A DNA stretch of 45,198 nucleotides from an uncultured Streptomycetaceae bacterium (GTDB taxonomy: Bacteria; Pseudomonadota; Gammaproteobacteria; Burkholderiales; SG8-41): contig CAZMBS010000001.1 of NCBI GenBank assembly GCA_964564295.1, forward strand, positions 12,182 through 57,379, in the 5' to 3' direction. Numbering within the stretch: the stretch's first letter is position 1; every line of letters begins with the position of its first letter. Below are positions 1 through 28,950 of the stretch, one piece after another. A program made the position numbers and the translations under genes. Below the pieces are notes generated by a model, which did no database searches, was not told the DNA's origin, and saw only the letters and a list, made by a program, of their open reading frames with translations.

Positions 1-968
1 TTCGCGTACAGGCGCAGGAAGCGTTCCTGGTCGGGACCGGGCGCATGAAATACCAGGTGCCGGAATCCCAGGTCCACATACGGACGGATCTTCTCGACGT
101 GTTCGTCAGGGTCGGTCGACACGATCCATCGCGTCGCGGTGCGCTCGAGCGGCAACGCGTCCGCGAGTTTCTCCATGGCCATCGGGTCTTCCACCGATAC
201 TTTTTCTTCCGGAGACAGGGCGAGCGCACCCCAATACCGGGTATCGTTCAGCGCGCGCCCGGCGTCGGTATCGAACGACACCTTCATCTCGATCATGCGA
301 TCGAAACCGGGTTTCCCGCTTCCGGAAATCCGGATGCCCTCGTCGACGTTGGGCAACAGCTTTTCCGTGTACAGCGTCATGGCCTTGCCGCTGGTGCAGA
401 TGAATCCGTCGCCGGCGCGCCCGGCGTACTTGGCAACCATGGGCCCGGCGGCCGCCACATAGATCGGAACCGGCCGCTCGGGACGATCGTAGATCGTGGC
501 ACGCTCGGTCCGGTAATACTCGCCCGCGAACGACACGCGGTCCTCGGCCCACAGTTTTCGTATCAGCGTGACCGACTCGCGCAACCGCGCAAACCGTTCC
601 TTCATTTCCGGCCAGGGCTGTCCCGTCGCCGGTACCTCGTTTAGCGACTCCCCGCTGCCCACGCCGAGCACGAAGCGGCCGGGAAACATCGCGCCCAGCG
701 TTCCGAACGCCTGCGCGACGATCGAGGGGTGATAGCGCATCGTGGGCGTCAGCACGCTCGTGCCGAGCATGACGCGCGAGGTCCGTGCCGCCGCCGCGCC
801 CAGCCAGGCGATGCACGACGGCGCATGCCCGCCGGTATGCCGCCACGGCTGAAAATGATCGCTCGTGAAAACAGAATCGAAGCCGCACTCTTCGGCGATG
901 CACGCGTAGCGCAACAACTCCGCCGGTCCGAACTGTTCGGCGGACGCCTTGTATCCCAGTTTGATCAT
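1..968 (-). CDS. fgd: F420-dependent glucose-6-phosphate (sugar-6-phosphate) dehydrogenase, LLM family; 3' end truncated by window edge
   Basis: Not in the ORF track because it has no stop in the window. Manual translation from ATG 968 gives [15 protein letters not shown]...[15 protein letters not shown]...[13 protein letters not shown]...GSGESLNE...[14 protein letters not shown]...[17 protein letters not shown]...[15 protein letters not shown], collinear with mycobacterial Fgd as I recall it. Confidence 0.93.
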
Positions 969-987: not shown

Positions 988-1386
988 TCAGACCTGGCCG
1001 AGTTCCCGCGCGCGATCCTCCGCGGCCTTCAAGGCGCGCTGCCCCGACACGATGTACGTCATCATGCCGCCCAGCAATATGCAGAGGCTCACGACGTCCG
1101 CCACCTGCTGCACGGTGGCGCCCGCCTCGATCGCGAGCTTCGCGTGGCGGTCGGGATTCGGCTTGTGCGCGATGATTTCAACGGCCGTGGAGATGAGCTC
1201 GAGGTCTTTCAGACTCAGGCCTTTCGAGTCGTTCGACTCAAAGATCGTCCGGCGCAGCTGTATCCAGTCGACGAGCACTTCCGGACGGTAGCGGGCCAGG
1301 CGTTCGTAGGATTCAAGCACCTCGCCGTAATACGTCATGCTGTACTGCCGCACTGCGGCGAGGTCCGCGGCGTTGTCGCGTTCCAT
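988..1386 (-). CDS. Carboxymuconolactone decarboxylase (CMD/AhpD-like) family protein
   Basis: 132 aa with [13 protein letters not shown]...[16 protein letters not shown], a CMD-fold pattern. TAATG stop/start overlap with the upstream LLM gene. Confidence 0.75.
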
Positions 1387-2393
1387 TATTCAGTTCTCCC
1401 GGATTGGTTGGTGAATGCCGGCACGACTTCCGCCGCGATGAGGCGCATCATCGCCAGCTGATCTTCAAGACTTTTCGCGATGAATTTGAGCTCGAAGTGC
1501 GTCACGCCGATGTCCACGTAACGCTTCATTTGCCGTACGACCATCGCAGGTGTGCCGATGAAATTGCAGTCGAGCCCCTTCTGCATGTCCTTGTACCAGT
1601 ACATGAGCGTCGATTCGGCATCCCGGGTCGCCTCGCCGGCATCGCCGCGTATCAGCACGAATAGCTCGAGGCCGCAGACGACGTCGCGGCGGGACCGGCC
1701 GACGAGCGCCAGTTGCTGGTCGAGCTGGGGCAGCTTTTCCCGGTATACGTCCAGCGTGAAACCCGCTGGGAGGAACCCTTCGCCGTAAACCGCGACTCTG
1801 CGCATGGCGGCCTCGACCTTGCCGCAGATCCAGATCGGCAGCGCGCGCGGCTTGGGATAAAACTCGCCGTTTTGAAACCGTATCGTGCGGCCCTCGTGGG
1901 TCGTAAGGGGCGTCGCGTCGAATATGCGCCGAATGACCTCGAGGTACTCGTCGGTGCGTTTGCCGCGCTCGTTGAACGGCACCTGCATGACATCGAACTC
2001 ATCTGCCGACGCGCCGATGGTCACGCCCAGCATGAAGCGCCCGCCGGAGAGTTCGTGCAGCGTTGCCGCCTGCTTGGCGAGCAGACGCGGATCGCGGGTC
2101 GGCAACGTGATGCCGGTCGGAAACAAGCGAATGCGCCGGGTCAACGCAGCGGCATAGGTGAGCACCGTCATCGCCTCGTACAGCACGGGATCCTGATCGT
2201 CCCGGACCATGTCCACGCTGCCTGCGGAGAAATGCCGGTTCTGTTTGCGGCTGCGCGGGATATGGTCGTGGACGGTCAGGGCCTCGAAACCCAGCTGGTC
2301 CGCGAGAACTGCGACAGCCTCCACCGCAGGGCGCGTGGTATAGGGCCCGGAGTTGGGCAGACGGATGCTGAATGTGACGGGGTGGGTCGACAT
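1386..2393 (-). CDS. LLM-class (luciferase-like) oxidoreductase, probably F420-dependent
   Basis: AxLADQLGF..LTVHDH, AAALTRRIRL, RDPRLLAKQAATLHELSGGRFMLGV, RGKRTDEYLE, PKP..LPIWI motifs. Same operon as fgd. Confidence 0.85.
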   Translation of the reverse strand: MSTHPVTFSIRLPNSGPYTTRPAVEAVAVLADQLGFEALTVHDHIPRSRKQNRHFSAGSVDMVRDDQDPVLYEAMTVLTYAAALTRRIRLFPTGITLPTRDPRLLAKQAATLHELSGGRFMLGVTIGASADEFDVMQVPFNERGKRTDEYLEVIRRIFDATPLTTHEGRTIRFQNGEFYPKPRALPIWICGKVEAAMRRVAVYGEGFLPAGFTLDVYREKLPQLDQQLALVGRSRRDVVCGLELFVLIRGDAGEATRDAESTLMYWYKDMQKGLDCNFIGTPAMVVRQMKRYVDIGVTHFELKFIAKSLEDQLAMMRLIAAEVVPAFTNQSGRTE

Positions 2394-2449: not shown

Positions 2450-3439
2450 TCAGTCATCGGCCCGCGCTCCTGAAGCCTTGACCACTTCAGCCCAGCGCAC
2501 AGTTTCCTCGCGCACGAACGCGCCGAACTCCGACCTGCTGCTGCCGACGGGCGTCACACCGATGTCCAGCATGCGCGTCGCAACATCCGGCTGGCGCATG
2601 ATGCCCCGGATTTCACCGGACAGCCTGTCGAGGATGATCGCCGGCGTTCCGGCTGGAGCGAAGAATCCCTGCCACGACGTCACCTGGAAGCCGGGAACCG
2701 TTTCGCCCACCGTCGGCAACTCCGGCACGATGGGAGAGCGCTGCGCGCCGGTGACTGCGATCGCGCGCAGCTTTCCGATCTTTGCCTGCGCGTGCGCGGT
2801 TGGCATGTTGTCGAATGCTACGTGCACGTGTCCGCCCACGAGGTCAATGATCATCGGACCGCTGCCCTTGTACGGTACGTGCAGCATCGATGCTCCGGTT
2901 TTCATTTTAAGCAGCTCCGCCGCAAGGTGGCTCGAGGTGCCCGCGCCGCCCGCCGAGCCGTACGAGTACTTGCCCGGGTGGGTCTTGAGCATTTGAACCA
3001 ATTCCGGAACCGTCGCTGCCGTCACGCTGGGGTGGGCCACCAGCATCAGCGGCTGCGAGGTCGCGAGCGACAGTGGCGCAAAATCCTTCAGATTGTCGTA
3101 GCGCAACTTCCGATAAAGGGACGCGTTGATCGCATGGGTACCGACGGTCCCGACCATCAACGTATATCCGTCCGCCTGCGCCCTTGCGACGTATTCCGAA
3201 CCTACCGCACCGGCCGCCCCCGTCCGATGTTCGACGACGACCGGCTGGCCCAGTCGTTCGCTCAATTTCTGTCCGACGACACGTCCGACAAGATCGGCGA
3301 TTCCGCCCGGCGCATGCACGACGACGATGCGCAGCGGCTTTCTCGGGAACGGTTCCTCGCGCTGCGCGAGCGCCACGCCGCTACCGCCGGCGGCAACCAG
3401 CGCAATCAGCAGCCGCAAAAAACAGTTGTGATGGTGCAT
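2450..3439 (-). CDS. Bug/TctC family tripartite tricarboxylate transporter substrate-binding protein
   Basis: Signal peptide, FPRKPLRIVV..APGG..D, GAAGAVG, DGYTL, HVPYKGSGP. Start reassigned to ATG 3439 (GGAGG SD upstream); the ORF-track extension overlaps the LysR gene. Confidence 0.9.
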   Translation of the reverse strand: MHHHNCFLRLLIALVAAGGSGVALAQREEPFPRKPLRIVVVHAPGGIADLVGRVVGQKLSERLGQPVVVEHRTGAAGAVGSEYVARAQADGYTLMVGTVGTHAINASLYRKLRYDNLKDFAPLSLATSQPLMLVAHPSVTAATVPELVQMLKTHPGKYSYGSAGGAGTSSHLAAELLKMKTGASMLHVPYKGSGPMIIDLVGGHVHVAFDNMPTAHAQAKIGKLRAIAVTGAQRSPIVPELPTVGETVPGFQVTSWQGFFAPAGTPAIILDRLSGEIRGIMRQPDVATRMLDIGVTPVGSSRSEFGAFVREETVRWAEVVKASGARADD

Positions 3440-4539: not shown

Positions 4540-5598
4540 ATGCTCACATCGTGTTCGCAATTCCTCCGGTGCGGTGTTGCCCGAGTCGCCGGCAGCCCCA
4601 ACCCGGTTCGCCGAATCCGCTTGCTCAGCGCGACCGCGCTTGCGACCCTGATAGTCTCGGCTGGAGCCGCGCCGCCCGCTGCGCACGCGCAATCACCGGC
4701 ATATCCGTCCAAGACGGTGCGCGTTGTCGCGCCGTTCCCGCCCGGCGGGACCACCGATCTGGTGGGCCGGTTGATCGCGCAAGGACTGGGAAAGCGATTG
4801 GGGCAGAACTTCATCATCGACAATCGCGGCGGCGCCGGCGGCTTGATCGGAACGGACATCGTGGCGAAAGCGCAAGCCGATGGCTATACGCTGCTCGTCG
4901 GTGCATCGGGACCCATCATGATGCTCCCGGGACTCACGAAAAAACTTCCCTACGACGTGCTCGGGGACTTCGAGACGATCGCGAATATCGTGACGGTCCC
5001 CAACCTCATGGTCGTTCCGGCAGGCTCCCGGTTCGGCACGCTGAAAGATCTGATCGACCATGCGAAGTCGAATCCCGGTCGGGTACGATACGCGTCCGGC
5101 GGGGTGGGCTCCTCGGGCCATGTCGCGGGCGCCTTGCTGGGCTCGATCGCCGGCATCGACATGCAGCATGTGCCGTACCGTGGCGCGGGCGTCTCGCTCG
5201 TCGGCGTCATGGCGGGAGAGGCCGACGTGATATTCGTCAATCTGCCGTCCGCCCTGCCGCTCACGCGCAGCGGGAAACTGCGCGGGATCGTCGTCATGAG
5301 CGACAAACGGGCATCAACCGCGCCGGAATATCCCACGACGGCGGAAGTCGGCATGCCGCGATTCGTGCTCGGCAGTTCGACCGGGCTTCTCGCGCCAAAG
5401 CGCACATCGAGGAAGATCGTGGCGCTGCTCGATGAAGCGATGAAAGCATTGGCGGAGGAACCCGAGTACACCAGGCAATTCGCACTCTCTGGCGCCGACA
5501 TCGATTTCATGAACGCGGCGCGGTACCGCGCATTTATCTCCGCCGAAATCGCGCGCTTCACGGATCTGGGCAAAAAAGCAAACATCACGGCGGAATAA
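4540..5598 (+). CDS. Bug/TctC family substrate-binding protein
   Basis: YPSKTVRVVAPFPPGGTTD, NRGGAGG, DGYTL, HVPYRGAG. AAGGAGG SD before ATG 4540. Confidence 0.9.
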   Translation: MLTSCSQFLRCGVARVAGSPNPVRRIRLLSATALATLIVSAGAAPPAAHAQSPAYPSKTVRVVAPFPPGGTTDLVGRLIAQGLGKRLGQNFIIDNRGGAGGLIGTDIVAKAQADGYTLLVGASGPIMMLPGLTKKLPYDVLGDFETIANIVTVPNLMVVPAGSRFGTLKDLIDHAKSNPGRVRYASGGVGSSGHVAGALLGSIAGIDMQHVPYRGAGVSLVGVMAGEADVIFVNLPSALPLTRSGKLRGIVVMSDKRASTAPEYPTTAEVGMPRFVLGSSTGLLAPKRTSRKIVALLDEAMKALAEEPEYTRQFALSGADIDFMNAARYRAFISAEIARFTDLGKKANITAE

Positions 5599-5636
5599 GC
5601 GATCGCAATTCGGGAAACGGGAAAAGGAACAGCCTC

Positions 5637-7019
5637 ATGGCGAAAATCGACATGTTGTTTACCGGTGGAGAAATACTGACCCCTGCGGGCAGAATCCACG
5701 CAACGCTGGGGGTGGAGAATGGAAGAATCGCGTTCATTTCCTCCGCTCACTGGACACCACCGGCCGCCGAAACGGTCGACGTTTCCGGGAAGTTGCTGGT
5801 TCCCGGATTCATCGACTCGCACGTTCATTTTCGGGATCCGGGACTCACCTATAAGGAAGATTTTCTGACCGGCTCGCGCGCGGCGGCAGCTGGCGGTGTC
5901 ACGTGCGTGGCGGACATGCCGAACAACAAGCCGGCGCTGACGACAGCCGCGCGGTTTCGTGACAAGCTCGACGCCATACGGTCGAAAGCCGTTGTCGACT
6001 ATGCGCTTTACGGCGGATCGACGAACCACGCGGAAATTCCCGGCATGCTGCGGGCGGGCGCCATCGGCATCAAGGTGTTCATGGTCTGCGACCCCAAGTC
6101 GCACTATCCGCACGACCCCGAGCTTTTCACGGGCGATCATGGCGTGCTGTACGACACGCTGAAAGTCGTGGGCGCCGAAGGCGGCTACTGCGCGGTTCAC
6201 CCCACGAATCAGCAGATATTCGAACACGAATCCCGCAAGCGCTGGGCCGCCGGGACGCTTGCCCCGCGCGATTTCATGAATGCGTATTTCGGGGAAAATT
6301 ACGTTTCCGATCATACGGCAATCGTCACTTTGATCGAAATGGCGCGCGCCTCGGGCACGCGCACTCACATTCTTCATCTGCGTTCGGAGCCGGGCATACG
6401 CGCGATTCAGCACGCCAAAGAGGAGGGCGTGCCGGTGACCATGGAGGTCAACCCGAAGTACATGTTCACCAGCTTCGAGGACCTCGACAGGAAAGGGCCG
6501 CTATGCGTGCCGTATGCCATGACTCCGGCCGGCCAGCAGATGCTGCTGGACTGCGCGAACCGCGGCTGGGTGGATGTGTACGGGACGGATCACGCGCCGC
6601 ACACTAAGGAAGAGATGGAGCCGGGTTGGAAAGACGCCTGGAGCATCCCGTTCGGCAATCCACAGGTGGAGCACTACATCACGGCGCTGATGACGCACGT
6701 GAGCGCCGGGCGCATGAGTCTGGAAACGCTGGTTCGCCTGTGTGCGGAGAATCCGGCCAAAGTCATGGGCGTGTGGCCGCGCAAGGGCATCATTCAGGTC
6801 GATTCGGACGCGGATATCACGGTGCTCGACCTCGATGCGCGTGGAACGCTGTCCGACAAGGACGTGTACACGAAGGTAGGTTGGTCGCCTTATTCGGGCC
6901 TCCAGTACCATGGCCGGCCGGTGATGACGGTCGTGCGGGGCCGCATCGTCATGCGGGATGGAAAAGTCATCGGCGAACCGGGTTGGGGAAGGCTGGTCCC
7001 CGGGAGGGCCGCAAAATGA
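5637..7019 (+). CDS. Cyclic amidohydrolase (dihydroorotase/allantoinase/dihydropyrimidinase superfamily)
   Basis: PGFIDSHVHFRDPG, GSRAAAAGGVT..DMPN, carboxylatable Lys (GIKVFM), HILH, GTDHAPH, ENPAK, DADI metal-centre motifs. Confidence 0.88.
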   Translation: MAKIDMLFTGGEILTPAGRIHATLGVENGRIAFISSAHWTPPAAETVDVSGKLLVPGFIDSHVHFRDPGLTYKEDFLTGSRAAAAGGVTCVADMPNNKPALTTAARFRDKLDAIRSKAVVDYALYGGSTNHAEIPGMLRAGAIGIKVFMVCDPKSHYPHDPELFTGDHGVLYDTLKVVGAEGGYCAVHPTNQQIFEHESRKRWAAGTLAPRDFMNAYFGENYVSDHTAIVTLIEMARASGTRTHILHLRSEPGIRAIQHAKEEGVPVTMEVNPKYMFTSFEDLDRKGPLCVPYAMTPAGQQMLLDCANRGWVDVYGTDHAPHTKEEMEPGWKDAWSIPFGNPQVEHYITALMTHVSAGRMSLETLVRLCAENPAKVMGVWPRKGIIQVDSDADITVLDLDARGTLSDKDVYTKVGWSPYSGLQYHGRPVMTVVRGRIVMRDGKVIGEPGWGRLVPGRAAK

Positions 7020-7393
7020 GCGCGGACGTGGAGGTGCCGGGCTGTTCGCCCGAGGTGGTATCCGATGCAACGCGCATATTGTCCGAGGCGCGGGCTCAAT
7101 GCGCTGCCCTGGGCGTTCCGCCGGAGGCGTTCGCGGCGTTGCTGTTGCCGGAGGCCCTTCTCGCCATGATGGTGGCTGGCATGCGGCAGGAAGAGGTCGA
7201 GGATGAATTTGCGCGCTTCGCGCGGGAGAACATTCCGGCGTGGTTTCTGCAGGTGAAACGCACCGCCGGCTATTGCGACTGCGAGCGCGAAGCGCGGGGT
7301 GAACATGCGGCGTACTGCGACGTTCGGCGGGCGCCCGGATTGCCGCGGCCGCTGTTCGACAGGATCCGGCAACAAATCGGCGCCGAAAAATGA
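7016..7393 (+). CDS. Hypothetical protein (125 aa) with a C-terminal CxC...H...C cluster
   Basis: ATGA overlap with the amidohydrolase stop; fills the gap up to the convergent pgl. Confidence 0.6.
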   Translation: MSADVEVPGCSPEVVSDATRILSEARAQCAALGVPPEAFAALLLPEALLAMMVAGMRQEEVEDEFARFARENIPAWFLQVKRTAGYCDCEREARGEHAAYCDVRRAPGLPRPLFDRIRQQIGAEK

Positions 7394-7424: not shown

Positions 7425-8150
7425 TCAAACGCCGGCAAGCGCTGCCTCGTCCACGAATACTTGCACCGGGCAGCGAATCCGGCTTGCAGGAATGGACGGG
7501 TCGCGCTGCAACAGGCGTTTCACCGCAGCCGCCTTGTCGGCGCCGGTAATTACGAACATGACCTGACGGGCGCGATTGAGCGCGGGAAAGGTGAGGGTCA
7601 TGCGCCGCGTTCCCTGGTACAGGCCGGTGACGGCGACGTCCGATCCGGTCATATCCAGGACCGGATCACCGGGAACCAAAGAAGCTGTGTGTCCGTCGGC
7701 CCCCAACCCCAATTGAACCAGATCCAGCACCGGGGGAGATCCCGCGATTTCCGCGAGCGTTGTCGCGTACAGTGCCGCCGCCGCGACGGGATCGGCAGCC
7801 GTCACCGGCATGGCGTGCACGTTGTCGGGCGGGACGGGCGCGCGATCCAGAAAACTCTGCTGAAGTTGCGTCAGATTTCGATCCGGATGCCGGTCGGGTG
7901 CCAGGCGCTCGTCCACCTGGACCACATGTACGGCATTCCACGGCAAGTCTTCTGCCGCGAGCACGCGCAGCATGATCCAGGGCGTGCGGCCGCCACTGAC
8001 ACCCAGCACGAAACGGCCACGATTCCGTGCGGCTGTTCTTGCCGCCTCGGCGATGCGCCTCGCCGCCGCACGCGCAACTGTTTCAGCGTCGGGATGGACC
8101 TGCGTATCCCACACCGGATTACCGATGCGCATTTCGGGCGCATCAGCCAT
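7425..8150 (-). CDS. pgl: 6-phosphogluconolactonase
   Basis: [38 protein letters not shown] motifs. Start reassigned to ATG 8150, overlapping the gnd stop. Confidence 0.9.
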
Positions 8151-9162
8151 CCGAGCGTTTCTCCAGATGCCCGCCGAAAGCATGCCGCATCGCCGACAAG
8201 ACCTTGTTCTGAAACTCCGCGTTTCCACGTGAGCTGAACCGCCCGAACAGTGCAGCAGCGAGGACCGGCGTCGGCACGCCCTCGTCGATGCCCGCCTTGA
8301 TCGTCCAGCGCCCTTCGCCCGAGTCCGAGACGCGCCCGGCAAATCCGGTCAGCCCCGGGTCCTTGTGCAGCGCGGCAGCAGTGAGATCCAGCAGCCAGGA
8401 ACTGATCACGCTGCCGCGACGCCACACTTCGGCGATGTCCGCGACGTTGAAATCGTACTGATAGTGCTCCGGATGAGACAGCGGCGTGGTTTCCGCATCG
8501 GCCGCGTGCGAGATCAAGCCCGCATTTGCCGCCTGCAGTATGCCGAATCCTTCCGCATACGCGGCCATGACGCCGTACTCGATCCCATTGTGAATCATCT
8601 TGACAAAATGTCCGGCGCCATTTGGGCCGCAGTGCAGGTAACCCGCCTCCACGGCGCCGCCGGTGCCGGCGCGTCCCGGCGTGCGCGGGATTTCGCCCCG
8701 ACCCGGAGAAAGCGTCGCGAATATGGCATCGAGGTGACGAACCGTCGCTGCATCGCCACCAATCATCATGCAATAACCGCGTTCGAGGCCCCAGACACCG
8801 CCGCTGGTGCCGACATCAACGTAGCGTATGCCCTTGGCGGCGAGCGCTTTCGCGCGCCGCAAGTCGTCGACGTAGTGCGAGTTGCCGCCGTCGATCAGGA
8901 TGTCCCCCGTGCCCAGGTGCGGCACCAGCGCATCGATTGTTTCGTCCACCACACCGGCCGGAACCATGAGCCAGATCGCGCGGGGCGATTCGAGCCGCCT
9001 GGCCAGCTCCTGCATGCTTGCCGCGCCGGTCACGTTGTCGAGCTTCAATCCCGCGACCGCGTCGGCCGATCGGTCGAACGCCACGCAGCGATGCCCTCCC
9101 GCCGCGAGCCGGCGCACCATGTTGGCGCCCATGCGCCCCAGTCCTATCATTCCGAGTTGCAT
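8143..9162 (-). CDS. gnd: Decarboxylating 6-phosphogluconate dehydrogenase, short (YqeC/GntZ) type
   Basis: [58 protein letters not shown]. Confidence 0.95.
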
Positions 9163-13344: not shown

Positions 13345-13537
13345 CGGTTTCGGGTGCCCTGCGCAGTGCCAACGCGCGGGTTAAACGGGAAACAGGTGCA
13401 ACACCTGTGCTGCCCCCGCAACGGTAAGTGAACGCGGTTGCAAAACCGCAGCGAATGCCATTCAGCCACTGGGTATAACCATGCCCGGGAAGGCGGCACG
13501 AGCCATGTTCACGAGCCCGTATACCGGCCCGAAACCG
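13345..13537 (+). ncRNA. Cobalamin riboswitch
   Basis: P1 CGGTTTCGGG/CCCGAAACCG, AACGGGAA-CAGGTG, CTGCCCCCGCAACGGTAA, GCCACTG, GGGAAGG and a B12-box-like GAGCCCG..ACCGGCC. Lies upstream of a TonB receptor. Confidence 0.93.
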
Positions 13538-13684
13538 GCGGTCTCCATACGCGTGGAGATCCGGGTGCGGACATGCTGCGGATGGGCGGCGGGCCGGTCG
13601 GTCACGGTTTTCTATCCTCTTTTCGCAGCGGGCCTGCGTAATGCAATCGGCGCGCGGCGGGCGCGCATTGAACGAGGACGAAAC

Positions 13685-15631
13685 GTGAACACAGTGAAGT
13701 GGATTGTTGCCCTATTGGCGGCTTGCGCGTGCGCGAGTCATGCCGCCGAAGTATCGATAACCCGGACCGAGCCCGTCGTCGTCATCGCGACACGCTTCGA
13801 GCAGCCAAGCAGCGAATCCGGCGTGACCGTGATCGACCGCGCAGCCATCGAGCGCAGCACCGCGCGCAGTGTGATCGAGTTGTTGTCTCTTCAGGCGGGC
13901 ATCCAGTCCCGCGACAGCACGGGCAGCCCCGACCTTCAGATCGACATGCGCGGCTTCGGCCAGACCGGCGACCTCAATACCGCGGTGTTGATCGATGGAC
14001 AGCGTTTCAACGAGATCGATACCGGTCCGGTCAAGTGGTCTTCGATTCCGCTCTTGGCGGTGGAGCGCATCGAGATTCTGCGCGGCAGCGGTGCCGTCCT
14101 GTATGGTGGCGGCGCAACCGGCGGCGTAATCAATATCGTGACGCGACGTCCCCGTGCCGGCGAGAAACAGGCCGAAGCGCACGTCGGCCTGGGCAGTTAC
14201 CGGACGACCGACCTTCACGGGGGACTCACCGTCGCCGGCGAGCGCATAGGGTTGCGCCTTCACGTAACGGATCGCCGGTCGGACAACTACCGGGAAAACA
14301 ACCGCATCGAGCAGCGCAACGTGCTCTTGGACATGCGCACGCTGGGTGCGGGCAGCCACGCGTACGTGAAACTTGCCACCGACGATCAGGATCTGCGCAA
14401 TCCCGGCCAGTTGACGCTCGCGGAACTCGCAGTCAACCGGCGCGGCACCAGCACGCCGAACGACTTCAGCGCACGCGAGGGCGTGCGCGCGGATGTCGGA
14501 GGCGTGCTGTTTGCCGGCCCGTTCGAACTGGCTGCCAACCTTGCTTACCGCAAGCAGGACACGCGCGCGCACTTCGCGGCGTTCGGGGCCGACGTGAACA
14601 ACGGTACAGACGGCATTGCTTTCGCGCCGCGCGCGAAACTTCCCTACACGCTGGGCGGACTCGCGCAATCACTGGTCGCGGGCCTCGATGTTGAGGAAGG
14701 GCGCCTAGACCGAGACGTCACGGGTTCGTTCTTTTCGGGACGCAGCAAGGCACGGCAGGACAAGCGCGCAATCTACCTTCAGCATCACGCCGCTTTCGGC
14801 GGCGGCTGGTTCGCGACAATCGGGGCGCGCGCGCAGCACGCCGAGAACGCCCTTGACGATCCGGCGACCGCGCCCATGCCGATTCGCAAACGCTATTCAC
14901 TGACCGCCTCGGAACTGGCCGTGCGCTACGAAGTGATTCCCGCGCTGGCGTTCACCGGCAAGACCGGGCGCAGCTTCCGCCTGCCGTCAGTCGAAGAAAC
15001 GAATTTCTCGAGTCCGGCGCTGCTGGAACCGCAAACCTCGCGCGACCGGGAAGTCGGGCTGGAATATCGCGCGCCGGCGGCACGGGTGCGGCTCGCGGCC
15101 TATCGCATTGATCTGGAGAACGAAATTGCATTCAACCCGGTCCTGTTCGACAACGTCAATCTCGCTCCGACGCGACGCGAGGGCGCGGAACTCGAAACGC
15201 GCTGGCGCACCACTCCGGATCTGGAGCTGTTCGTGAACTACGCGCACGTGCTCGCCCGCTTTCGCAGCGGCGTTTATGGCGGCGCAAGCCTCGCGGGCAA
15301 CGCGGTGCCGCTGGTGCCGCGAAACACTGTGAGCACCGGACTGTCCTGGCGCGTGCGTGACAAGACCCGGTTGGGCGCCACCGTGCGATTTGTGGGCGCG
15401 CAGCGACTGGCCAACGACGAGACCAACCTGCTCGCGCAGGACATTCCGGCGTACACGACAGCGGACGTCAAGATTGCGCATGAATCCGGCGACTGGATGT
15501 TTGACGCAACCGTGCTCAACCTGTTCGACAGGAGCTACTACACGCAGGGCGGCGTCAACGCGCTGGGACTCATCCGGGTGTTCCCGGCGCCGAAACGCAG
15601 CATCCACGCGACCGTGCGCCGCGCGTTCTGA
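13685..15631 (+). CDS. btuB: TonB-dependent receptor, BtuB-like (cobalamin uptake)
   Basis: Signal peptide, TonB box EPVVVIATRF, plug motifs IDMRGFG / VLIDG / VERIEILRGSGAVLYG..ATGGVINI, C-terminal Phe. GTG start with GAGGA SD; riboswitch upstream. Confidence 0.85.
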   Translation: MNTVKWIVALLAACACASHAAEVSITRTEPVVVIATRFEQPSSESGVTVIDRAAIERSTARSVIELLSLQAGIQSRDSTGSPDLQIDMRGFGQTGDLNTAVLIDGQRFNEIDTGPVKWSSIPLLAVERIEILRGSGAVLYGGGATGGVINIVTRRPRAGEKQAEAHVGLGSYRTTDLHGGLTVAGERIGLRLHVTDRRSDNYRENNRIEQRNVLLDMRTLGAGSHAYVKLATDDQDLRNPGQLTLAELAVNRRGTSTPNDFSAREGVRADVGGVLFAGPFELAANLAYRKQDTRAHFAAFGADVNNGTDGIAFAPRAKLPYTLGGLAQSLVAGLDVEEGRLDRDVTGSFFSGRSKARQDKRAIYLQHHAAFGGGWFATIGARAQHAENALDDPATAPMPIRKRYSLTASELAVRYEVIPALAFTGKTGRSFRLPSVEETNFSSPALLEPQTSRDREVGLEYRAPAARVRLAAYRIDLENEIAFNPVLFDNVNLAPTRREGAELETRWRTTPDLELFVNYAHVLARFRSGVYGGASLAGNAVPLVPRNTVSTGLSWRVRDKTRLGATVRFVGAQRLANDETNLLAQDIPAYTTADVKIAHESGDWMFDATVLNLFDRSYYTQGGVNALGLIRVFPAPKRSIHATVRRAF

Positions 15632-15708: not shown

Positions 15709-17478
15709 ATGTCCAGCAAAGCGCTTTACGCGCGCCTGCTTCGGCACGTTGCGCCGTACTGGCGCGTGTTCGGGCTCGGCATATTCGCCACCGTCGTGGT
15801 GGCCGCAACCGAACCGGCGCTTCCTGCCCTTCTGAAACCTCTGCTCGACGGTGTGTTTGTTGCGCGCGACAACACCGTGATTCTGTGGACGCCGGCCATC
15901 ATACTCGGGCTGTTCATGGTCCGGGGCGTCGCCGAGTATGTGGCGCAGTACGCCATCGGCTGGATCGGCAGCCGTGTCGTCATGGACTTGCGCAACCTGA
16001 TGTTCCGCAAGCTGCTCGAACTGCCCGCCACGTACTACGAGAATCAGCCGTCCGGCCATCTCGTGTCGAAACTTACCTATGACGTAACGCAGGTCGCTTC
16101 AGCCGGAACGAGTGTATTGACCGCCATTTTCAAGGATACGCTCGTCATTATCGGCCTCGTGAGCTGGATGCTGTGGCTCAACTGGAAACTCACGCTGCTC
16201 GCAGTCGTGATGGCGCCGGTCATCATCGGCATCGTCCGGGCGATCAGCATCCGACTGCGCAACTCGAGCCGGGACGTGCAGCGCAGCATGGGCGACATGA
16301 CCCAGGTGCTGCACGAAGCCATCGACGGCCACAAAGTGGTCAAGCTGTTCGGCGGACAACAGTACGAGGCCGCGCGCTTCGATGCTGAAGCCAACAACGT
16401 GCGCCGATTTCTGATGAAGCAGGTGGCGGCAGCCGCGGCGAGCGTTCCACTGGTGCAGTTTATCGCCGCCGCGGCCCTCGCCGTGATCGTCTACCTCGCG
16501 ACGCGACAGACCCACGGCGACGCGGTCACGGTCGGCGCATTCGTGTCCTTCATCGCGGCAATGCTGATGTTGACGGCGCCGTTGAAGCGCATCACGAATG
16601 TCAACGAGCCGTTGCAACGCGGCCTCGCCGCGGCGGAGTCCGTGTTTGCACTCATCGACCACGAAGGGGAGGCAGATCCGGGCACGATGACGCTGGGGCG
16701 CGCGCGAGGCGCACTGCGTTTCGAGGACGTGTCGTTTTCGTACGACGGCAGTGCGGTTCCGGCGCTGGTCGCAGTCGACCTGGATATCGCACCCGGAGAA
16801 ACGGTGGCTCTGGTCGGCGCATCCGGCGCCGGGAAAACCACATTGGCAAATCTGGTGCCGCGCTTTTACCGGCCCACGCGAGGCCGTATCCTGCTCGACG
16901 GTCACGACCTCGGCACGTTACAGCTTGCAAGCCTGCGCGGCAATATCGCGCTGGTCAGCCAGGACATCGTGCTGTTCAACGACACGCTTGCCGCCAATAT
17001 TGCCTACGGCCTGGCGGACAAGGCGTCGCCGGAAGAAATCGCCGCTGCCGCGGAAGCTGCGCATGCGATGGAGTTCATACAACAAATGCCCGAAGGTCTC
17101 GGCACGAAGATCGGCGAGAACGGCGTGAAGCTTTCCGGGGGACAACGGCAGCGCCTGGCCATCGCGCGTGCTCTGCTCAAAAACGCACCCGTCCTGGTGC
17201 TCGATGAGGCGACCTCGGCGCTCGACGCGGAATCCGAACGCCACGTTCAGGCGGCGCTGGAGGCGCTCATGCGCAACCGCACCACGATCGTCATTGCCCA
17301 CCGATTGTCTACGATCGAACGGGCCGACCGTATCATCGTTCTCGATGCCGGCCGCGTCGTGGAAACGGGCACGCACCGCGAACTTCTGGATCGCGAGGGT
17401 GCCTACGCAAAGCTCTATCAGATCCAGTTCAGGAATGAATCCGTCCATGGCGCGCCGGCAACCGGCGGAAGATCGTGA
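15709..17478 (+). CDS. msbA: Lipid A export ABC transporter MsbA
   Basis: TMD plus NBD with GASGAGKT, LSGGQRQRLAIARA, LDEATSALD, IAHRLST. Sits at the head of the LPS locus. Confidence 0.93.
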   Translation: MSSKALYARLLRHVAPYWRVFGLGIFATVVVAATEPALPALLKPLLDGVFVARDNTVILWTPAIILGLFMVRGVAEYVAQYAIGWIGSRVVMDLRNLMFRKLLELPATYYENQPSGHLVSKLTYDVTQVASAGTSVLTAIFKDTLVIIGLVSWMLWLNWKLTLLAVVMAPVIIGIVRAISIRLRNSSRDVQRSMGDMTQVLHEAIDGHKVVKLFGGQQYEAARFDAEANNVRRFLMKQVAAAAASVPLVQFIAAAALAVIVYLATRQTHGDAVTVGAFVSFIAAMLMLTAPLKRITNVNEPLQRGLAAAESVFALIDHEGEADPGTMTLGRARGALRFEDVSFSYDGSAVPALVAVDLDIAPGETVALVGASGAGKTTLANLVPRFYRPTRGRILLDGHDLGTLQLASLRGNIALVSQDIVLFNDTLAANIAYGLADKASPEEIAAAAEAAHAMEFIQQMPEGLGTKIGENGVKLSGGQRQRLAIARALLKNAPVLVLDEATSALDAESERHVQAALEALMRNRTTIVIAHRLSTIERADRIIVLDAGRVVETGTHRELLDREGAYAKLYQIQFRNESVHGAPATGGRS

Positions 17479-17495
17479 CTTGAAGATGGTGCCGG

Positions 17496-18263
17496 ATGTC
17501 GTACCGATCGATTAACCTGCTGCTTCGAAGCCATGTTCCGGCGGCAGTGCTGGCCACGTATCTTTGCGGTCGCGCGAACCGCGCATGGCGCCGCGTGTTT
17601 GCCGATCGCGAGCGGAGCGAGCGGACAGACGATGCGCGGCGCGCTTTCGAAAAATGCACCGAATCCGGGCGTTACTCGAACACCTGGTTCGACGGCAGCA
17701 TCGCGCTGTGGGTCGATTGGCTGGCGCCGCTGAAGGCTTCGGCCCGGGCGCCCGCGTTGCTTGAAGTCGGGTCGTGGGAAGGCCGGTCGACCACGTTTCT
17801 GCTGAGCTACCTGCCGCAGGCGCAACTTACCGCTGTGGATACCTGGGAGGGCGGCATAGAGCACCAGGAGCGCCCGGATCTTGCGACGCTGGAACAACGG
17901 TTTGATCTCAATCTGTCCGCATTCCGTGACCGCCTGACCAAGCGCAAGGGACTGTCGTCCGTCGTGCTCGCGCAACTGGCGGCGGAGGGAAAAGAGCGTT
18001 TCGATTTCATTTTCGTCGACGGATCGCATTTTGCCGACGATGTCCTGGTCGACGCCGTGCTGGCGTGGCAGCTGCTGCGCGAAGGCGGTGTCGTGGTATT
18101 CGACGACTACCTGTGGAAGCTCGAGCGCTACGGTTGGAAGAGAAATCCGGCGCCGGCGATCAACCTGTTTCTGCGACTCAATCGCGGCGATTACGACCTC
18201 TTGCACGTCGGGCACCAGCTCGCCATCCGCAAGTCGGTCTCGCTGCGCCGCTACTTGTCCTGA
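17496..18263 (+). CDS. Class I SAM-dependent methyltransferase (Methyltransf_24-like)
   Basis: LEVGSWEGRST, VDTW, FDFIFVDGSH, GGVVVFDDY. Confidence 0.85.
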   Translation: MSYRSINLLLRSHVPAAVLATYLCGRANRAWRRVFADRERSERTDDARRAFEKCTESGRYSNTWFDGSIALWVDWLAPLKASARAPALLEVGSWEGRSTTFLLSYLPQAQLTAVDTWEGGIEHQERPDLATLEQRFDLNLSAFRDRLTKRKGLSSVVLAQLAAEGKERFDFIFVDGSHFADDVLVDAVLAWQLLREGGVVVFDDYLWKLERYGWKRNPAPAINLFLRLNRGDYDLLHVGHQLAIRKSVSLRRYLS

Positions 18264-19507
18264 GGCGGCGGTTGTCCGCTCGCCGCATTTCCGCGCGGCG
18301 CGAGCAGTGCGCCCAGGAACAGTCCGATCAGGTGACCTTCCGAAAACGTGCGGAAATGCGAGCTGAACAGGCTTGTCACACACCAGATCGCGAGCGCGCC
18401 GCCGGCGATCCATCCGTAGGGACTCAAGCGCGCCGCACAGAATCCCGTCACGAGGATGGCGCAGAACGCGAGCAGTCCGACAACACCCGATTGCATCGCA
18501 ATAAACAGGTACTGGTTGTGCGGGTCGGTGGTCGGCGTCGCACGCCAGTCGTTGTAGCGTCCGCTTACGACTTTCGCATATTCCCTGCCGAAACTGCCGG
18601 TGCCATAGCCGACCAGCGGTCGCTCCAGTATCAATTCCACGGCGGTTCTGTAAAACACGACGCGTGCGCCCATCGACGTGAGTTCGGCGCTCTGGTCGGC
18701 ATGGGCCACTTCGTTTACTGCCTGCGTTATCCGGTCGCGAAACTGGGGCGCTGTTGCGTAAGCGATCAGGCCGGACACGACGAGTATCAACACCGAAACG
18801 TGCATGCGGCGCCAGCCCCATATCATGACGACGGACACGAAGGTGGCGATGGCGAGCGCCACGTAACCGCTGCGGCCGGGCGTGACGTAAATGATATTGA
18901 TCGCGAAAGCGAGCGCGGTTGCGCCGAGCACCCATGGCAGCCGGCCTGTGGCGCCGCGGGCAAAGTGCGCCGCGCACAGAATGGCCAGACTGAACACCAT
19001 GCCCTGGACCGAGTGGTTCTGGAGCACCACGCCCTGAATCGTGCCCGCGATCTGGTTGGACTTGGGCGGCACGACGCCAAGCACGGTGAGAAAGGAAATC
19101 GTCACGCCGATAGCGGCGACCACGAGAAACGCCGCCACAAACCGCTGCTGCCACTGTTCGGGCGCGAACAGACCCAGCAACAGCAGTGCGAACGCGAGTT
19201 TGCGCCAGCCCCATAGGTCGTGCCAGCGTTCCGCCCACGTCGCCGAACCGTACAGCATGCCGATGGCAGCGAGCGCGAGAAAAGCGGTCAACGCGATTCC
19301 GAACGGATTTCGGAGACTCGCCCGCAGCGTGGATAGCGCCTCGCCGGACATCATCCAGCTCGCGAGCATGACAGCGCAGGCGAGGCTCGTCAGCGCAGTG
19401 GAAAAGGTTGCAGCGCAGGCGCCGCTGATGGCCGCTCCGCGGCTCACCGCGAGACAGCGGGCGCGCCATGCGGGGCCGGCGGGCAATGCGATTCCGGGAT
19501 TATTCAA
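18251..19507 (-). CDS. waaL: O-antigen ligase (Wzy_C) family protein
   Basis: Multi-TM protein with GRSGY, SMGARV, PLVGYGTGSF, DPHNQYL...GVVGL. Start uncertain; TTG 19507 chosen to avoid overlap with the GT25 gene. Confidence 0.82.
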   Translation of the reverse strand: MNNPGIALPAGPAWRARCLAVSRGAAISGACAATFSTALTSLACAVMLASWMMSGEALSTLRASLRNPFGIALTAFLALAAIGMLYGSATWAERWHDLWGWRKLAFALLLLGLFAPEQWQQRFVAAFLVVAAIGVTISFLTVLGVVPPKSNQIAGTIQGVVLQNHSVQGMVFSLAILCAAHFARGATGRLPWVLGATALAFAINIIYVTPGRSGYVALAIATFVSVVMIWGWRRMHVSVLILVVSGLIAYATAPQFRDRITQAVNEVAHADQSAELTSMGARVVFYRTAVELILERPLVGYGTGSFGREYAKVVSGRYNDWRATPTTDPHNQYLFIAMQSGVVGLLAFCAILVTGFCAARLSPYGWIAGGALAIWCVTSLFSSHFRTFSEGHLIGLFLGALLAPRGNAASGQPPPQDK

Positions 19508-19553
19508 ATTGGTATCCGATTTCCGGGAGCCCTGGTGCCGCGCGACCGGAGTC

Positions 19554-20279
19554 TCAGCGCCACAGCTGATACAGGTATTTTCGGCGCAGCTTCTCCCACC
19601 GGAATATGAACGCCTGCACCCAGGTGGGCCATTGTGAGTCGGGCTCAAGGGTGGTGTCGAACAAGCCGGTCTTGCTGCCTTGTTCGACGACGGGGTCTTC
19701 GAGCCACAACATCATGATGCCGGCATCGCGGTCGATGATTTCGAACTGATTGTCTATCGGATTCGAGACGCGATGTACCGAAACCCAGTCGAGCCGGGCT
19801 TGCGCGGCGGGCATGCCGATGATGTAGGAGTCTGCGAGCCGGCCGCGAGCCCCGGCGTAGAGCCGCTGGCCGGGCCGGCGCATGCTGTGCGGAGTGTAGA
19901 AGTTGCCCCCGCAACCGATAAACACGACGGAGGGCTGCGGGAACCGGGGCCACTCGGACAGTGCGGCACTGACGCCGTCCGCGAATCCTTCTGCGAGCAA
20001 CGCATCATCTTCGAGAACGAGGGCCTGTTGTTGCCCGCGCGCGACGATGCGGCGCAATGCCGTAAGGTGTTTGAGGCCGCATGACTTCTGGCGGATATTC
20101 AGATCACCCTTGAACGTCTGTGCCTCGATTTCCGGTGTAATGTCTTCCGTATCCCACGCGTCAATGAACTCGGGGACGAGTCCGAATCGCGCGAGCTGCG
20201 TGCTGACGCTGCGGCGGCGCGCATCGGAGGTGCGGACGCTGACCACGTAGACGGCATCAAGGCCGGAGGAAGCGCTCAT
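19554..20279 (-). CDS. Glycosyltransferase family 25 (LPS biosynthesis)
   Basis: C-terminal part of ORF 19554..21071: VYVVS...RRR, FIDA, SCGLKH, LVLEDDA, PID. Confidence 0.85.
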   Translation of the reverse strand: MSASSGLDAVYVVSVRTSDARRRSVSTQLARFGLVPEFIDAWDTEDITPEIEAQTFKGDLNIRQKSCGLKHLTALRRIVARGQQQALVLEDDALLAEGFADGVSAALSEWPRFPQPSVVFIGCGGNFYTPHSMRRPGQRLYAGARGRLADSYIIGMPAAQARLDWVSVHRVSNPIDNQFEIIDRDAGIMMLWLEDPVVEQGSKTGLFDTTLEPDSQWPTWVQAFIFRWEKLRRKYLYQLWR

Positions 20280-20341
20280 GGATGGGTATGCGTTTTCAAT
20301 GACCGTGCGCCGCCACTGATACCGTGGTGGCGCGATTGTCG

Positions 20342-21439
20342 CTACGCCGGCGCATTGTACCGCGCATCCAGCAGTCGTTCCGCCGCATGAATTACACGCG
20401 CAGCGGACAATTGCTGCAGGCAATCGCTCAAGCTGCTGATGTGCCGCTCGCAGCCTTCCAGATGGCAGGGCACGCAGGCGCCGGTGCCCTGCAGCAGGAT
20501 CACGTTGCCCCTGTGCTGGGTGCCGCACCGCTGCCAGGGGTTCTCGGATGCCGGGTGCCCCTTGGGCCATGGTCCCCATTTGACCGCATTGGTCGGACCG
20601 AAAAGAGCCAGTACCGGGACTCCGAGTGCCGCGGCCATATGCGTCATCGCGGTGTCCGGGCCGACGTAGATGCGCGACCGGCCGGCAAGGCAGCTTGCCG
20701 CCGGCAGGGAGATTTTGCCGGCAAGATTGACCGTGTCGGCGGGCAGGGCCGCAGCGATGCGCTGCACGTACTGCAACTCTTCCGTCTCCGAGCCGCCGGT
20801 CAGCACGATACGCAGGCCACGCGCGGCGAGATGCTGCGCGAGTGCAGCCCAGCCATCGGCGCGCCACATTTTGTAGCTGAACTTCGGAAATACATGCAGC
20901 ACGGCAAACGCGGTATGCCTGGTGTCGAACCCCGCGGCGGCGGCAAGTTCGGCCTCGTGCCGCGGTTGCCACGCGGGCACGACTCTCGCGCGAGGCGCGA
21001 TGCCCAGGATGTCCGCAAGCGCGAGGTGCGTGCGTACCGTGTGTGTGTTGAGCCCGTCGAAATCCGCCCACCGGTCAAGCAGGCGACGCTTCCAATGCTG
21101 TTGTGCTTCGTCGATCAGCAAACCGGCGCGCCAGCGTCCGGCCGCCCAAGCGTAAAGCGTCGGACGGTCACCCGGAACCAGCGATACGGCCGCGTCGTAC
21201 CGGTTCCATAAACCGGCAATAAAAACAACATGTTGCAAAACTCCGGGTCGCTCGCGTACTGCGATGACCCGGCGTACGCGCGGATGCGCCTGTACCACGC
21301 TCCCGGTTCCATTGAACACCAGCATGTCAATCGCGGTGTCGGTCCAGGCCTCGGCGATGGACTCGATGAGCGGCGTCGCGAGCAGCACGTCGCCGATCCG
21401 GCGCGTAATCACGAGCAGGATGTTTGCGGGCGGCTTCAT
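20342..21439 (-). CDS. GT9 family LPS heptosyltransferase (RfaQ/WaaQ-like)
   Basis: ILLVITRRIGDVLLATPLI, YKMW, NLAGKISL, GPDTAMTHMAAALGVPVLALFGPT. Confidence 0.88.
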   Translation of the reverse strand: MKPPANILLVITRRIGDVLLATPLIESIAEAWTDTAIDMLVFNGTGSVVQAHPRVRRVIAVRERPGVLQHVVFIAGLWNRYDAAVSLVPGDRPTLYAWAAGRWRAGLLIDEAQQHWKRRLLDRWADFDGLNTHTVRTHLALADILGIAPRARVVPAWQPRHEAELAAAAGFDTRHTAFAVLHVFPKFSYKMWRADGWAALAQHLAARGLRIVLTGGSETEELQYVQRIAAALPADTVNLAGKISLPAASCLAGRSRIYVGPDTAMTHMAAALGVPVLALFGPTNAVKWGPWPKGHPASENPWQRCGTQHRGNVILLQGTGACVPCHLEGCERHISSLSDCLQQLSAARVIHAAERLLDARYNAPA

Positions 21440-22251
21440 TACAGATATCGATCGACGCCGACGCGCGCGCGCCTGCGGCCGGAAGCGATGAGTTCGTCCA
21501 GCAGCCGCTGATTGTCGTCGAACCCGCGCTTGTCCGCTTCGCGATGCCACAGGTGAAACACGGAAGCGGCGAAGCGGGCGCTCTTGTGCCGGATTCCCGC
21601 GTGGATGAGACGAATCGCCAGATCGGAATCTTCGAGCCCCCATTTTCCCGCAAAGGACTCGTCGAATCCGTTCACTGCGACCAGGTCCTCGCGCCACGCC
21701 GAGAGGTTGCAGGTTTTCACGCCCTTCCAGCGGTCAGGCGCACGCTTGCGGAACGCGCCGTCCGGCAGCCGCAGCAACGGCAGCCAGCGATTGATATCGC
21801 GTTTCAACCAGGAGCCAAACCAGCGCCCCGTGCTTCGATCGTGCAACGGCAGGCATTGCGCCAGGGCGCGCCTTGTGAATCCTTCGCTCAACAGCACGCG
21901 ATTGCCCGACAGGAACCACCCCGGCTCCGCGAGCCGCCGGTGCTGCGCCAGGAAATCGCGCGGCGGGACGCAATCGTGATCCGTAAACACGATGTATTCC
22001 GCATCGGTCGCTGCGATCCCGCGATTGCGCATCACGGATGCGCCGAAACCGCGGTTTTCCTGCCACAGATGGGTCACCCGGAACGGCGCGCGCGCGGCGT
22101 ATTCGGACACCACGGCGCGAACCGTGTCCTGCGAGCCGTCGTCTGCGACGATGATCTCAAAATCGCCCGATGCCTGCTGCAGATAACCTTCCAGCAGCGC
22201 GGCGAGAGTATCGGGGCGGTTATAGGCCGCGACGACAACCGCGATCTTCAC
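21439..22251 (-). CDS. Glycosyltransferase family 2
   Basis: AYNRP, EIIVADDGS, RNRG, FTDHDC, NGFDE, WGLEDSD. GTG start overlaps the upstream stop. Confidence 0.88.
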   Translation of the reverse strand: MKIAVVVAAYNRPDTLAALLEGYLQQASGDFEIIVADDGSQDTVRAVVSEYAARAPFRVTHLWQENRGFGASVMRNRGIAATDAEYIVFTDHDCVPPRDFLAQHRRLAEPGWFLSGNRVLLSEGFTRRALAQCLPLHDRSTGRWFGSWLKRDINRWLPLLRLPDGAFRKRAPDRWKGVKTCNLSAWREDLVAVNGFDESFAGKWGLEDSDLAIRLIHAGIRHKSARFAASVFHLWHREADKRGFDDNQRLLDELIASGRRRARVGVDRYL

Positions 22252-23000: not shown

Positions 23001-23081
23001 ATCACCGTCCTGGGAACTTCCGGCCCGCCCCGCGTCCAGAACGGAGACGTCGTCGCCACGGACACCCGCGGTACAGCCATG

Positions 23082-25879: not shown

Positions 25880-25951
25880 TATGCGTTATGTGATTGATTT
25901 ATATTGACTTGTGGATGATACCATCAACGCGCAAACGGCAGCAGGCCCGGC

Positions 25952-26893: not shown

Positions 26894-27072
26894 AACACGA
26901 TCCAAATGTTGCACCGGCCGCGGCGCGATGGGAACGGAGATATGCGCACAAGCCACGTTCGCGGTATGCGGTAAAACGCTATCATGACGTTCGGGAATCC
27001 GGACCGGTGAATACGATTCGCAGTGGGCCGTAGCATAATGACTTTCCGGGCCGCGAGGTAGGCTGTCACTCG

Positions 27073-27825: not shown

Positions 27826-27856
27826 CGCGCCGATACGCTTTGGAGCCCGGGCGGAA

Positions 27857-28867: not shown

Positions 28868-28950
28868 TTGAAGACCGCGGAGCACCGCCGGGGTGCGCGA
28901 GATATAATATGATGATTATGCTGGGTAATTTCCTCCCGGGACTTTGAATC

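Follow-up and report, generated by a model that had tools for sequence, protein, structure and literature searches.

The gene fgd, at the left edge of a 45,198-nucleotide stretch of DNA from a metagenome-assembled genome (MAG) of a Burkholderiales bacterium (assembly GCA_964564295.1, contig CAZMBS010000001.1, positions 12,182 to 57,379; the whole stretch is called the window), very probably codes for a working F420-dependent sugar-phosphate dehydrogenase from the FGD/FSD branch of the luciferase-like family and belongs to an F420 operon that its host most likely acquired horizontally. The enzyme would oxidize glucose-6-phosphate (G6P) to 6-phosphogluconolactone and pass the hydride to cofactor F420, giving F420H2. 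The product of pgl would hydrolyze the lactone, which pgl and gnd, 6.5 kb away, would process. As proposed, a single unit would carry the genes for making F420, for reducing it with a central sugar phosphate and for at least one oxidoreductase that probably uses F420H2.

The fgd frame lies on the minus strand from an ATG at position 968 to base 3 (3..968, the first 322 of 334 codons) and is open past the start of the window; it was defined by the open reading frame (ORF), the TIGR03554 match and the alignment with PDB entries 5lxe and 3b4y. An earlier reading made from the letters alone (the sequence-only reading) had proposed that the ORF track missed this gene, and this was borne out, since the frame is listed only when open-ended ORFs are allowed and a track of closed ORFs therefore misses it. 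All four signature motifs quoted in that reading are present in the 968..3 frame, at residues 3-13, 36-50, 179-195 and 304-314. The listed ORFs 45..644(+) and 106..903(-), which it had regarded as shadows of fgd, both lie wholly inside the gene in other frames and have no NCBIfam or Pfam match.

The window itself (G000:C1:12182-57379, where C1 is the source contig) contains no N. A scaffold gap of exactly 100 N adjoins its start (C1:12082-12181, equal to positions 1399-1498 of locus L001), and the last 55 bases before the gap are the same as the first 55 bases of the window. The gap represents two overlapping contig ends that were joined by a spacer and not merged, and fgd is thereby split. 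The copy on the left flank extends the frame by 12 codons to a stop (...RLYAKTVLPKLRAAFG*), which places the final 12 codons and the stop on the far side of the gap, at approximately G000:C1:11990-12028. Collapsing the flanks yields a 334-residue protein that is 100% identical to the stored protein P0002, recorded on a 9928-nucleotide contig, and has the same C-terminus. Once the gap is collapsed, the frame runs to a normal stop and matches P0002 exactly, so the gene is intact, and a pseudogene or truncated gene was ruled out on the same grounds. As this case shows, closed-ORF tracks lose genes that a window edge or a scaffold gap interrupts.

The search with the TIGR03554 hidden Markov model (HMM; glucose-6-phosphate dehydrogenase, coenzyme-F420) that the sequence-only reading had proposed gave 478.6 bits for the 322-residue part in the window (E 8.5e-144, profile positions 2-322 of 331) and 485.7 bits for P0002 at full length; both values exceed the curated equivalog cut-off (420 bits). 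The sole Pfam match was the luciferase-like domain PF00296 (210.6 bits, cut-off 27.9, residues 9-304). The best solved structures, aligned end to end, were Fgd1 of Rhodococcus jostii (Rh-FGD1; 5lxe, E 1.8e-136) and FGD1 of Mycobacterium tuberculosis (Mtb; 3b4y, E 9.3e-133). These were followed by 9hav (a luciferase-family protein, 223 bits), 1rhc (Adf, 214 bits) and 9fp4 (hydroxymycolic acid dehydrogenase, 197 bits).

Residues are numbered as in Mtb FGD1, with roles as given in the accessible text of PMC13434993 and PMC5352752. The contacts to the C1 hydroxyl, Glu13, His40 and Trp44, and to the F420 ring, Asp39, Val74, Glu109 and Asn112 (PMC13434993), are kept in the window protein as Glu11, His38 and Trp42 and as Asp37, Val72, Glu107 and Asn110. 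The phosphate pocket of Lys198, Lys259 and Arg283 (PMC5352752, PMC13434993), a triad confirmed by mutagenesis in Rh-FGD1 (PMC5352752), is likewise kept, as Lys195, Lys256 and Arg280. The equivalents of His40, Trp44, Glu109, Asn112, Lys198, Lys259 and Arg283 are retained in 71 of 71 proteobacterial sequences from the set of loci described below. Judged by the HMM and these residues, the gene is a real member of the Fgd family. The label "Fgd" given in the sequence-only reading thus held at the family level, by the HMM and all contact residues, with the qualification that the protein does not fall among the canonical actinobacterial FGDs in the tree.

Adf (1RHC) and fHMAD/FGD2 (9FP4), both of the TIGR03557 family, share with the window protein the luciferase-like F420 fold and His40, Trp44, Glu109 and Asn112; they differ in having no Lys198/Lys259/Arg283 pocket, and they score only 214 and 197 bits against the query. 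Two same-family paralogues, L012 (G011:C13) and L013 (G019:C496), were also recorded. They score 290-302 bits on TIGR03554, below its cut-off, and 310 bits on TIGR03557, have the Adf-like Met177 and no Lys/Lys/Arg phosphate pocket, and form an outgroup in the tree. From these features, they are probably F420-dependent alcohol-type dehydrogenases.

Relatives of the window protein are abundant. The best 120 database proteins are 74-100% identical to it (332-345 residues), and JGI or NCBI has already given many of them the name F420-dependent G6P dehydrogenase, those of Acetobacteraceae MAGs and Enterovirga among them. In contigs representing one genome per species, at least 592 loci were confirmed from 600 pattern matches listed. 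The 80 most similar of these, a set that is biased toward the query, comprise 71 loci from Pseudomonadota (mostly Alpha-, also Gamma- and Betaproteobacteria), four from Actinomycetota, three from Chloroflexota and one each from Thermomicrobiota and Dormibacterota. Within this set cofE lies directly downstream of fgd on the same strand in 57 of the 71 proteobacterial loci; the order fgd-cofE-cofD is found in 49 and fgd-cofE-cofD-cofC in 41. At least one F420 biosynthesis gene was seen in 67 of 71 proteobacterial loci versus two of the nine others, and no Actinomycetota locus (0/4) has one directly downstream of fgd. Proteobacterial fgd usually stands at the head of the F420 biosynthesis operon. 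Ancylobacter, Falsiroseomonas oryzae, Devosia and Bradyrhizobium jicamae are among the named carriers of this operon.

The window gene shows the same arrangement. Beyond the gap, on the same strand as fgd, are cofE (C1:11204-11974, 267.3 bits), cofD (within the ORF C1:10209-11471, 288.2 bits), cofC (C1:9514-10212, 133.3 bits) and a fused fbiC/cofGH (C1:7100-9517, 1160.1 bits). Because all four are above their cut-offs directly downstream of fgd, the genome can make F420. Upstream on the minus strand are a gene for a 132-residue CMD/AhpD-like protein (988..1386; PF02627, E 4.5e-07, 30.2 bits, cut-off 23; no NCBIfam match), 19 nucleotides upstream of fgd, and a gene for a luciferase-like (LLM) oxidoreductase (1386..2393) whose stop overlaps the start of the CMD gene. 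The latter belongs to the TIGR03619 F420-dependent subfamily (177.4 bits, cut-off 166.9; PF00296, 179.4 bits) and is likely a user of F420H2. A gene for a TctC/Bug-type periplasmic solute receptor (2450..3439, minus strand; PF03401, 224.6 bits) lies 56 nucleotides upstream of the LLM gene and may be part of the same transcription unit as LLM-CMD-fgd. The order of transcription on the one strand is therefore (TctC)-LLM-CMD-fgd-cofE-cofD-cofC-fbiC. The spacers flanking fgd are 19 and 15 nucleotides and the remaining junctions from LLM to fbiC overlap by 1-4 nucleotides, which suggests that LLM through fbiC form one transcription unit.

The position of fgd at the head of biosynthesis genes also bears on an improbable alternative, in which the protein is an F420-dependent LLM enzyme with a role linked to biosynthesis, such as the oxidation or reduction of an F420 precursor or of some other phosphorylated alcohol, and not a sugar-phosphate dehydrogenase. 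A hint of such a role could be seen in the place of fgd, which precedes cofE-cofD-cofC as the first gene in 41-57 of the 71 proteobacterial loci, and in the stand-alone CofE (256 residues) of the cluster, which lacks the fused second domain of mycobacterial FbiB (function as described in the available part of PMC8498797). However, the full Fgd phosphate pocket and C1-hydroxyl contact set are invariant, the identity to solved Fgd structures spans the protein end to end, and the paralogues without the triad (L012 and L013, Met177) fall below the cut-off (301.8 bits) and outside the clade. In addition, pgl, fgd and gnd are contiguous on one strand in L084 (5298-8573), from an uncultured Xanthomonadales MAG, in which fgd scores 493.1 bits and no F420 biosynthesis gene was found within the 13-kb locus. 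This arrangement is an oxidative pentose-phosphate operon with Fgd in the usual place of Zwf. In L089, the order fgd-cofE-cofD-cofC is followed by gnd and pgl. These two loci are the strongest indirect indication of G6P as the substrate of the clade.

In the window itself, pgl and gnd lie about 6.5 kb from the fgd row, both on the minus strand. The gnd-type 6-phosphogluconate dehydrogenase gene (8143..9162; NF007161, 455.5 bits, cut-off 271; TIGR00872, 408.1 bits) is directly upstream of pgl, which encodes 6-phosphogluconolactonase (7425..8342; TIGR01198, 185.2 bits, cut-off 124.45). The true start of pgl is probably downstream of 8142, because the domain spans only residues 82-301 of the listed 305-residue ORF.

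The second part of the finding concerns the host and the origin of the cluster. The MsbA protein encoded in the window had 12 organism-named matches, all from Burkholderiales or Betaproteobacteria (71-76% identity), and on this basis the host is identified as a Burkholderiales bacterium. The distribution of the genes was examined in 41 genomes of the family and order, including G000 (the host) and with 25 in the host family; the genome G006, flagged as unpublished, was counted in these tallies, had no match over the cut-off and enters no other result. Fgd was over the cut-off in two genomes (G000 and G016), thus 2/41 overall and 2/25 in the family, while cofE and cofD were over the cut-off in 15/41, or 13/25 in the family. 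Genomes of the family usually have fbiC-cofE-cofD and then a TctC gene, with no fgd. In a tree of CofE and CofD, the window grouped with the clusters linked to fgd in MAGs of Casimicrobiaceae and Alcaligenaceae (SH-aLRT 98) and outside the 12-row family/order clade (support 92). Forcing it into that clade cost 97.6 log-likelihood units (approximately unbiased (AU) test, p-AU 0.0035; the AU p-values here and below are indicative only, because the groups were named after the trees had been seen). For Fgd, a clade of the window with the Casimicrobiaceae and Alcaligenaceae rows was not rejected (p-AU 0.43), and a clade with G016, the only other copy in the family, was rejected (p-AU 9e-5); the G016 protein sits with Ferrovibrio (99/99). 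The horizontal acquisition suggested in the sequence-only reading is therefore supported, by the presence of Fgd in only 2/25 family genomes and the rejection of family monophyly. Because the lineage of the cluster differs from that of the F420 cluster usual in the host family, fgd-cofE-cofD was most likely acquired horizontally relative to that family, and distribution and trees point to transfer of the whole cluster as a unit.

A TctC/Bug-type receptor gene also adjoins cofD in 11 of 14 same-family/order loci (L115-L126 among them). This link between TctC receptors and F420 genes is recurrent in the window's Burkholderiales family.

The sequence-only reading had named a chimeric contig as a possibility. 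In such a case, an actinobacterial or Chloroflexi gene would have been placed beside proteobacterial genes by scaffolding or binning. The genome has 344 contigs, is 76% complete with 3.07% contamination, and has a scaffold gap inside the very gene in question. Nevertheless, a chimera is highly improbable for several reasons. First, the 322 codons share an N-free 45-kb stretch with the TctC, pgl, gnd, TonB-receptor, msbA and lipopolysaccharide (LPS) genes. Secondly, 55 identical bases are shared by the flanks of the gap, and joining them gives P0002, recorded on the 9928-nucleotide contig. Third, the closest relatives are proteobacterial, not actinobacterial, and the order fgd-cofE-cofD-cofC across the gap matches that in 41/71 proteobacterial loci. 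Lastly, the cluster resembles its flanking genes in GC content (64-67% versus 63-65%) and in GC at third codon positions (GC3; 73-81% versus 76-78%). With this linkage to F420 genes and even composition, a chimeric contig is not supported.

The position of the protein in the Fgd family was determined from two trees that agree, a quick tree of 97 rows and a careful tree of 53 rows (support values are ultrafast bootstrap/SH-aLRT). Actinobacterial sampling covered 151 Actinomycetota genomes, five of which had Fgd over the cut-off; in several genomes, with up to 48 candidates each, scores were obtained for 13. A search of representatives at 50% identity, in which the Fgd family is one full-length representative (P0122), was used for outgroups only. 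Fgd-type proteins, the window protein among them, were separated from TIGR03557-type outgroups at 100/99, and the Dormibacterota and Ktedonobacteria rows were the earliest branches within the Fgd-type group. The canonical actinobacterial clade (100/98) contains three mycobacterial-type proteins (approximately 710-718 bits) with Terrabacter and Intrasporangium, all Gly177/His260. Its sister clade (98/90) contains 40 rows, including all proteobacterial rows and thus the window protein, and the two clades are united at 99/96. Nested in the sister clade is a nine-row actinobacterial group (100/100), which includes Herbiconiux, Subtercola, Rhodoglobus, Nakamurella, Actinoplanes and Cellulomonas; this group has Ser177 in 8/9 rows and is 58-61% identical to a mycobacterial-type Fgd. 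The grouping of the window protein with its nearest neighbours had a support of only 33/22. The phylogeny proposed in the sequence-only reading thus confirmed a place inside the Fgd-type group, although the protein is sister to the canonical FGDs and not within them; a tree constrained to group it with only the canonical FGD rows was rejected (p-AU 0.0056).

Several points weigh against a G6P-oxidizing enzyme in a horizontally acquired operon. The first concern two positions. According to Mascotti et al. 2018 (PMC6279831, as far as its text was available), Gly at position 177 marks G6P-specific FGD, Ser the broad FSD and Met Adf. Mtb Gly177 corresponds to Ala174 in the window protein, which thus has no FGD-type Gly; the 71 proteobacterial rows have Ala in 53, Gly in nine and Ser in nine. 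Mtb His260 corresponds to Val257. His is found at this position in five of five canonical actinobacterial rows, and the proteobacterial rows have Met (32), Val (15), Thr (11), His (9), Leu (2), Ala (1) and Ile (1). His260 of Mtb FGD1 reportedly has an active-site role, per the 2008 structure paper; no mention of a role for this residue was found in the F420 and FGD literature searched. Also, since the protein lies in the sister clade (98/90), outside the clade of characterized FGD types, its substrate specificity is an extrapolation across approximately 60-64% identity to actinobacterial Fgd rows, and no published activity for any proteobacterial member of the clade was found in the literature searched. 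A 2021 review lists Fgd in "Alphaproteobacteria?", with a question mark (PMC8498797, available part). With regard to physiology, the genome has a normal NADP-type zwf elsewhere (635.5 bits), and Fgd is therefore dispensable for the pentose-phosphate pathway. It speaks for the main reading that no Fno was above the cut-off in the 76%-complete genome (best 48.6 bits versus 149.8), but given this completeness its absence is weak evidence. With regard to the operon and its transfer, co-transcription is read from gene spacing alone, the AU tests carry the restriction given above, and the GC and GC3 of the cluster, which match the flanks, give no independent sign of recent transfer.

Some of these points would also fit an FSD-type enzyme, which takes fructose-6-phosphate and mannose-6-phosphate in addition to G6P and is not a G6P-specific Fgd; this is a possible but less probable explanation. 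The window protein shares its sister clade (98/90) with the Ser177 actinobacterial group (100/100), whose residue 177 and 58-61% identity resemble those of published FSDs, which have Ser177 and of which FSD-Noca is 59% identical to mycobacterial FGDs (PMC6279831, available text). From Ser177 and identity, this group would be FSD, although it is so only by inference, since the trees cover neither FSD-Noca nor FSD-Cryar. It scores 463-493 bits on TIGR03554, the same range as the window protein, and TIGR03554 thus cannot separate FGD from FSD-like proteins. Because the sister clade also holds these FSD-like enzymes, strict G6P specificity of the window enzyme is unproven; its Ala at position 177 is not the Gly of FGD. 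However, Ala is not the Ser of FSD either, and it is the residue found in most of the 71 proteobacterial rows. Furthermore, the published FSDs still prefer G6P (KM 0.9 mM versus 4.5-16 mM for other substrates; PMC6279831, available text), so the physiological reaction may be the same under either assignment, and the pgl-fgd-gnd operon of L084 points to G6P.

Compared with known systems, the window protein resembles Mtb FGD1 (Rv0407, 3B4Y) and Rh-FGD1 (5LXE) in its length, its end-to-end alignment, its TIGR03554 family and ten contact residues. It differs from them in its approximately 60-64% identity to actinobacterial Fgd rows, in Ala and Val in place of Gly177 and His260, in its sister clade and in its TIGR03554 score (486 bits versus 718 for a mycobacterial-type protein). 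The gene also heads F420 biosynthesis genes, as in none of the four Actinomycetota loci, and has a Burkholderiales host. Neither source organism of FSD-Noca (EGD40158.1) or FSD-Cryar (WP_035860858.1), both of the DH3 clade of Mascotti et al. 2018, was among the 120 best database proteins. With these two enzymes, as described in the accessible part of PMC6279831, the window protein shares the FGD/FSD branch and an unchanged phosphate-binding set, and its larger clade contains actinobacterial Ser177 proteins as well; the difference is Ala at position 177, where the FSDs have Ser.

Also among the known counterparts are the proteobacterial Fgds predicted in PMC8498797 and by NCBI and JGI names, which fall in the same clade with 70-81% identity and have the same order fgd-cofE-cofD-cofC. 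The sequence-only reading had considered an unrecognized proteobacterial clade, which did not hold, because the databases name abundant members Fgd and the review predicts Fgd in Alphaproteobacteria. The legend of Figure 10 in that review (PMC8498797, available part) also gives Fgd among the genes beside F420 biosynthesis genes. The proteobacterial Fgd clade is thus already recognized, though marked as unproven. The difference lies in the hosts. The review, in its available part, has Alphaproteobacteria, and states that betaproteobacterial F420 producers encode only Fno (PMC8498797); here the Burkholderiales with Fgd are the host of the window, L057 (Casimicrobiaceae) and L070 (Alcaligenaceae). 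No literature joining F420, Burkholderiales and Fgd was found in the search. The additions of this study are modest: a Burkholderiales host, a quantified fgd-first order, the signature of Ala177 and non-His260, and a tree position that falls to the FSD side of the split. One more Burkholderiales genome is predicted to couple F420 reduction to G6P, where the review gives Fno only for Betaproteobacteria. The proteobacterial enzymes could also be a pool for F420-regenerating biocatalysts, because their positions 177 and 260 depart from those of characterized enzymes and no assay was found.

A wider proposal, put forward tentatively and with more doubt than confidence, is that the fgd-first proteobacterial enzymes, mostly Ala177 and non-His260, form a third FGD/FSD subgroup. 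They would belong to a self-contained cassette with cofE-cofD-cofC that makes and charges F420, serve as the main or only F420 reductase where Fno is absent, and substitute for Zwf in some Gammaproteobacteria. If so, carriers without Fno would include Burkholderiales, for which the literature names Fno alone, and Fgd would replace Zwf in the oxidative pentose-phosphate operon of some Gammaproteobacteria (L084).

A number of other observations were made. In L074, a contig labelled "uncultured Actinomycetota", the Fgd forms a pair with a Steroidobacteraceae row (100/99) and carries Arg259 and Glu260 (Mtb numbering); the explanation is either transfer or mis-binning of the contig. Two copies in one actinobacterial genome (L106 and L107; G153:C5:487401-488048 and 180135-180782) cover profile positions 1-216 of 331 only, in frames of 249 and 226 residues, and could be paralogues that are truncated or end differently. 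Locus L009 contains, about 1 kb beyond fbiC, a second LLM oxidoreductase gene (5148-6101, plus strand; TIGR03619, 149.9 bits, just below the cut-off of 166.9), which may encode a further F420-dependent enzyme of the fbiC region and is followed by another TctC gene (6073-7092, plus strand). Elsewhere in the window, a TonB-dependent receptor gene lies at 13481-15631, and positions 15709-29000 contain msbA (779.7 bits) followed by a polysaccharide/LPS-type cluster with glycosyltransferases, a PseB/FnlA-like 4,6-dehydratase fused to a sugar transferase, a WecA/MraY-like transferase and an NAD-dependent epimerase.

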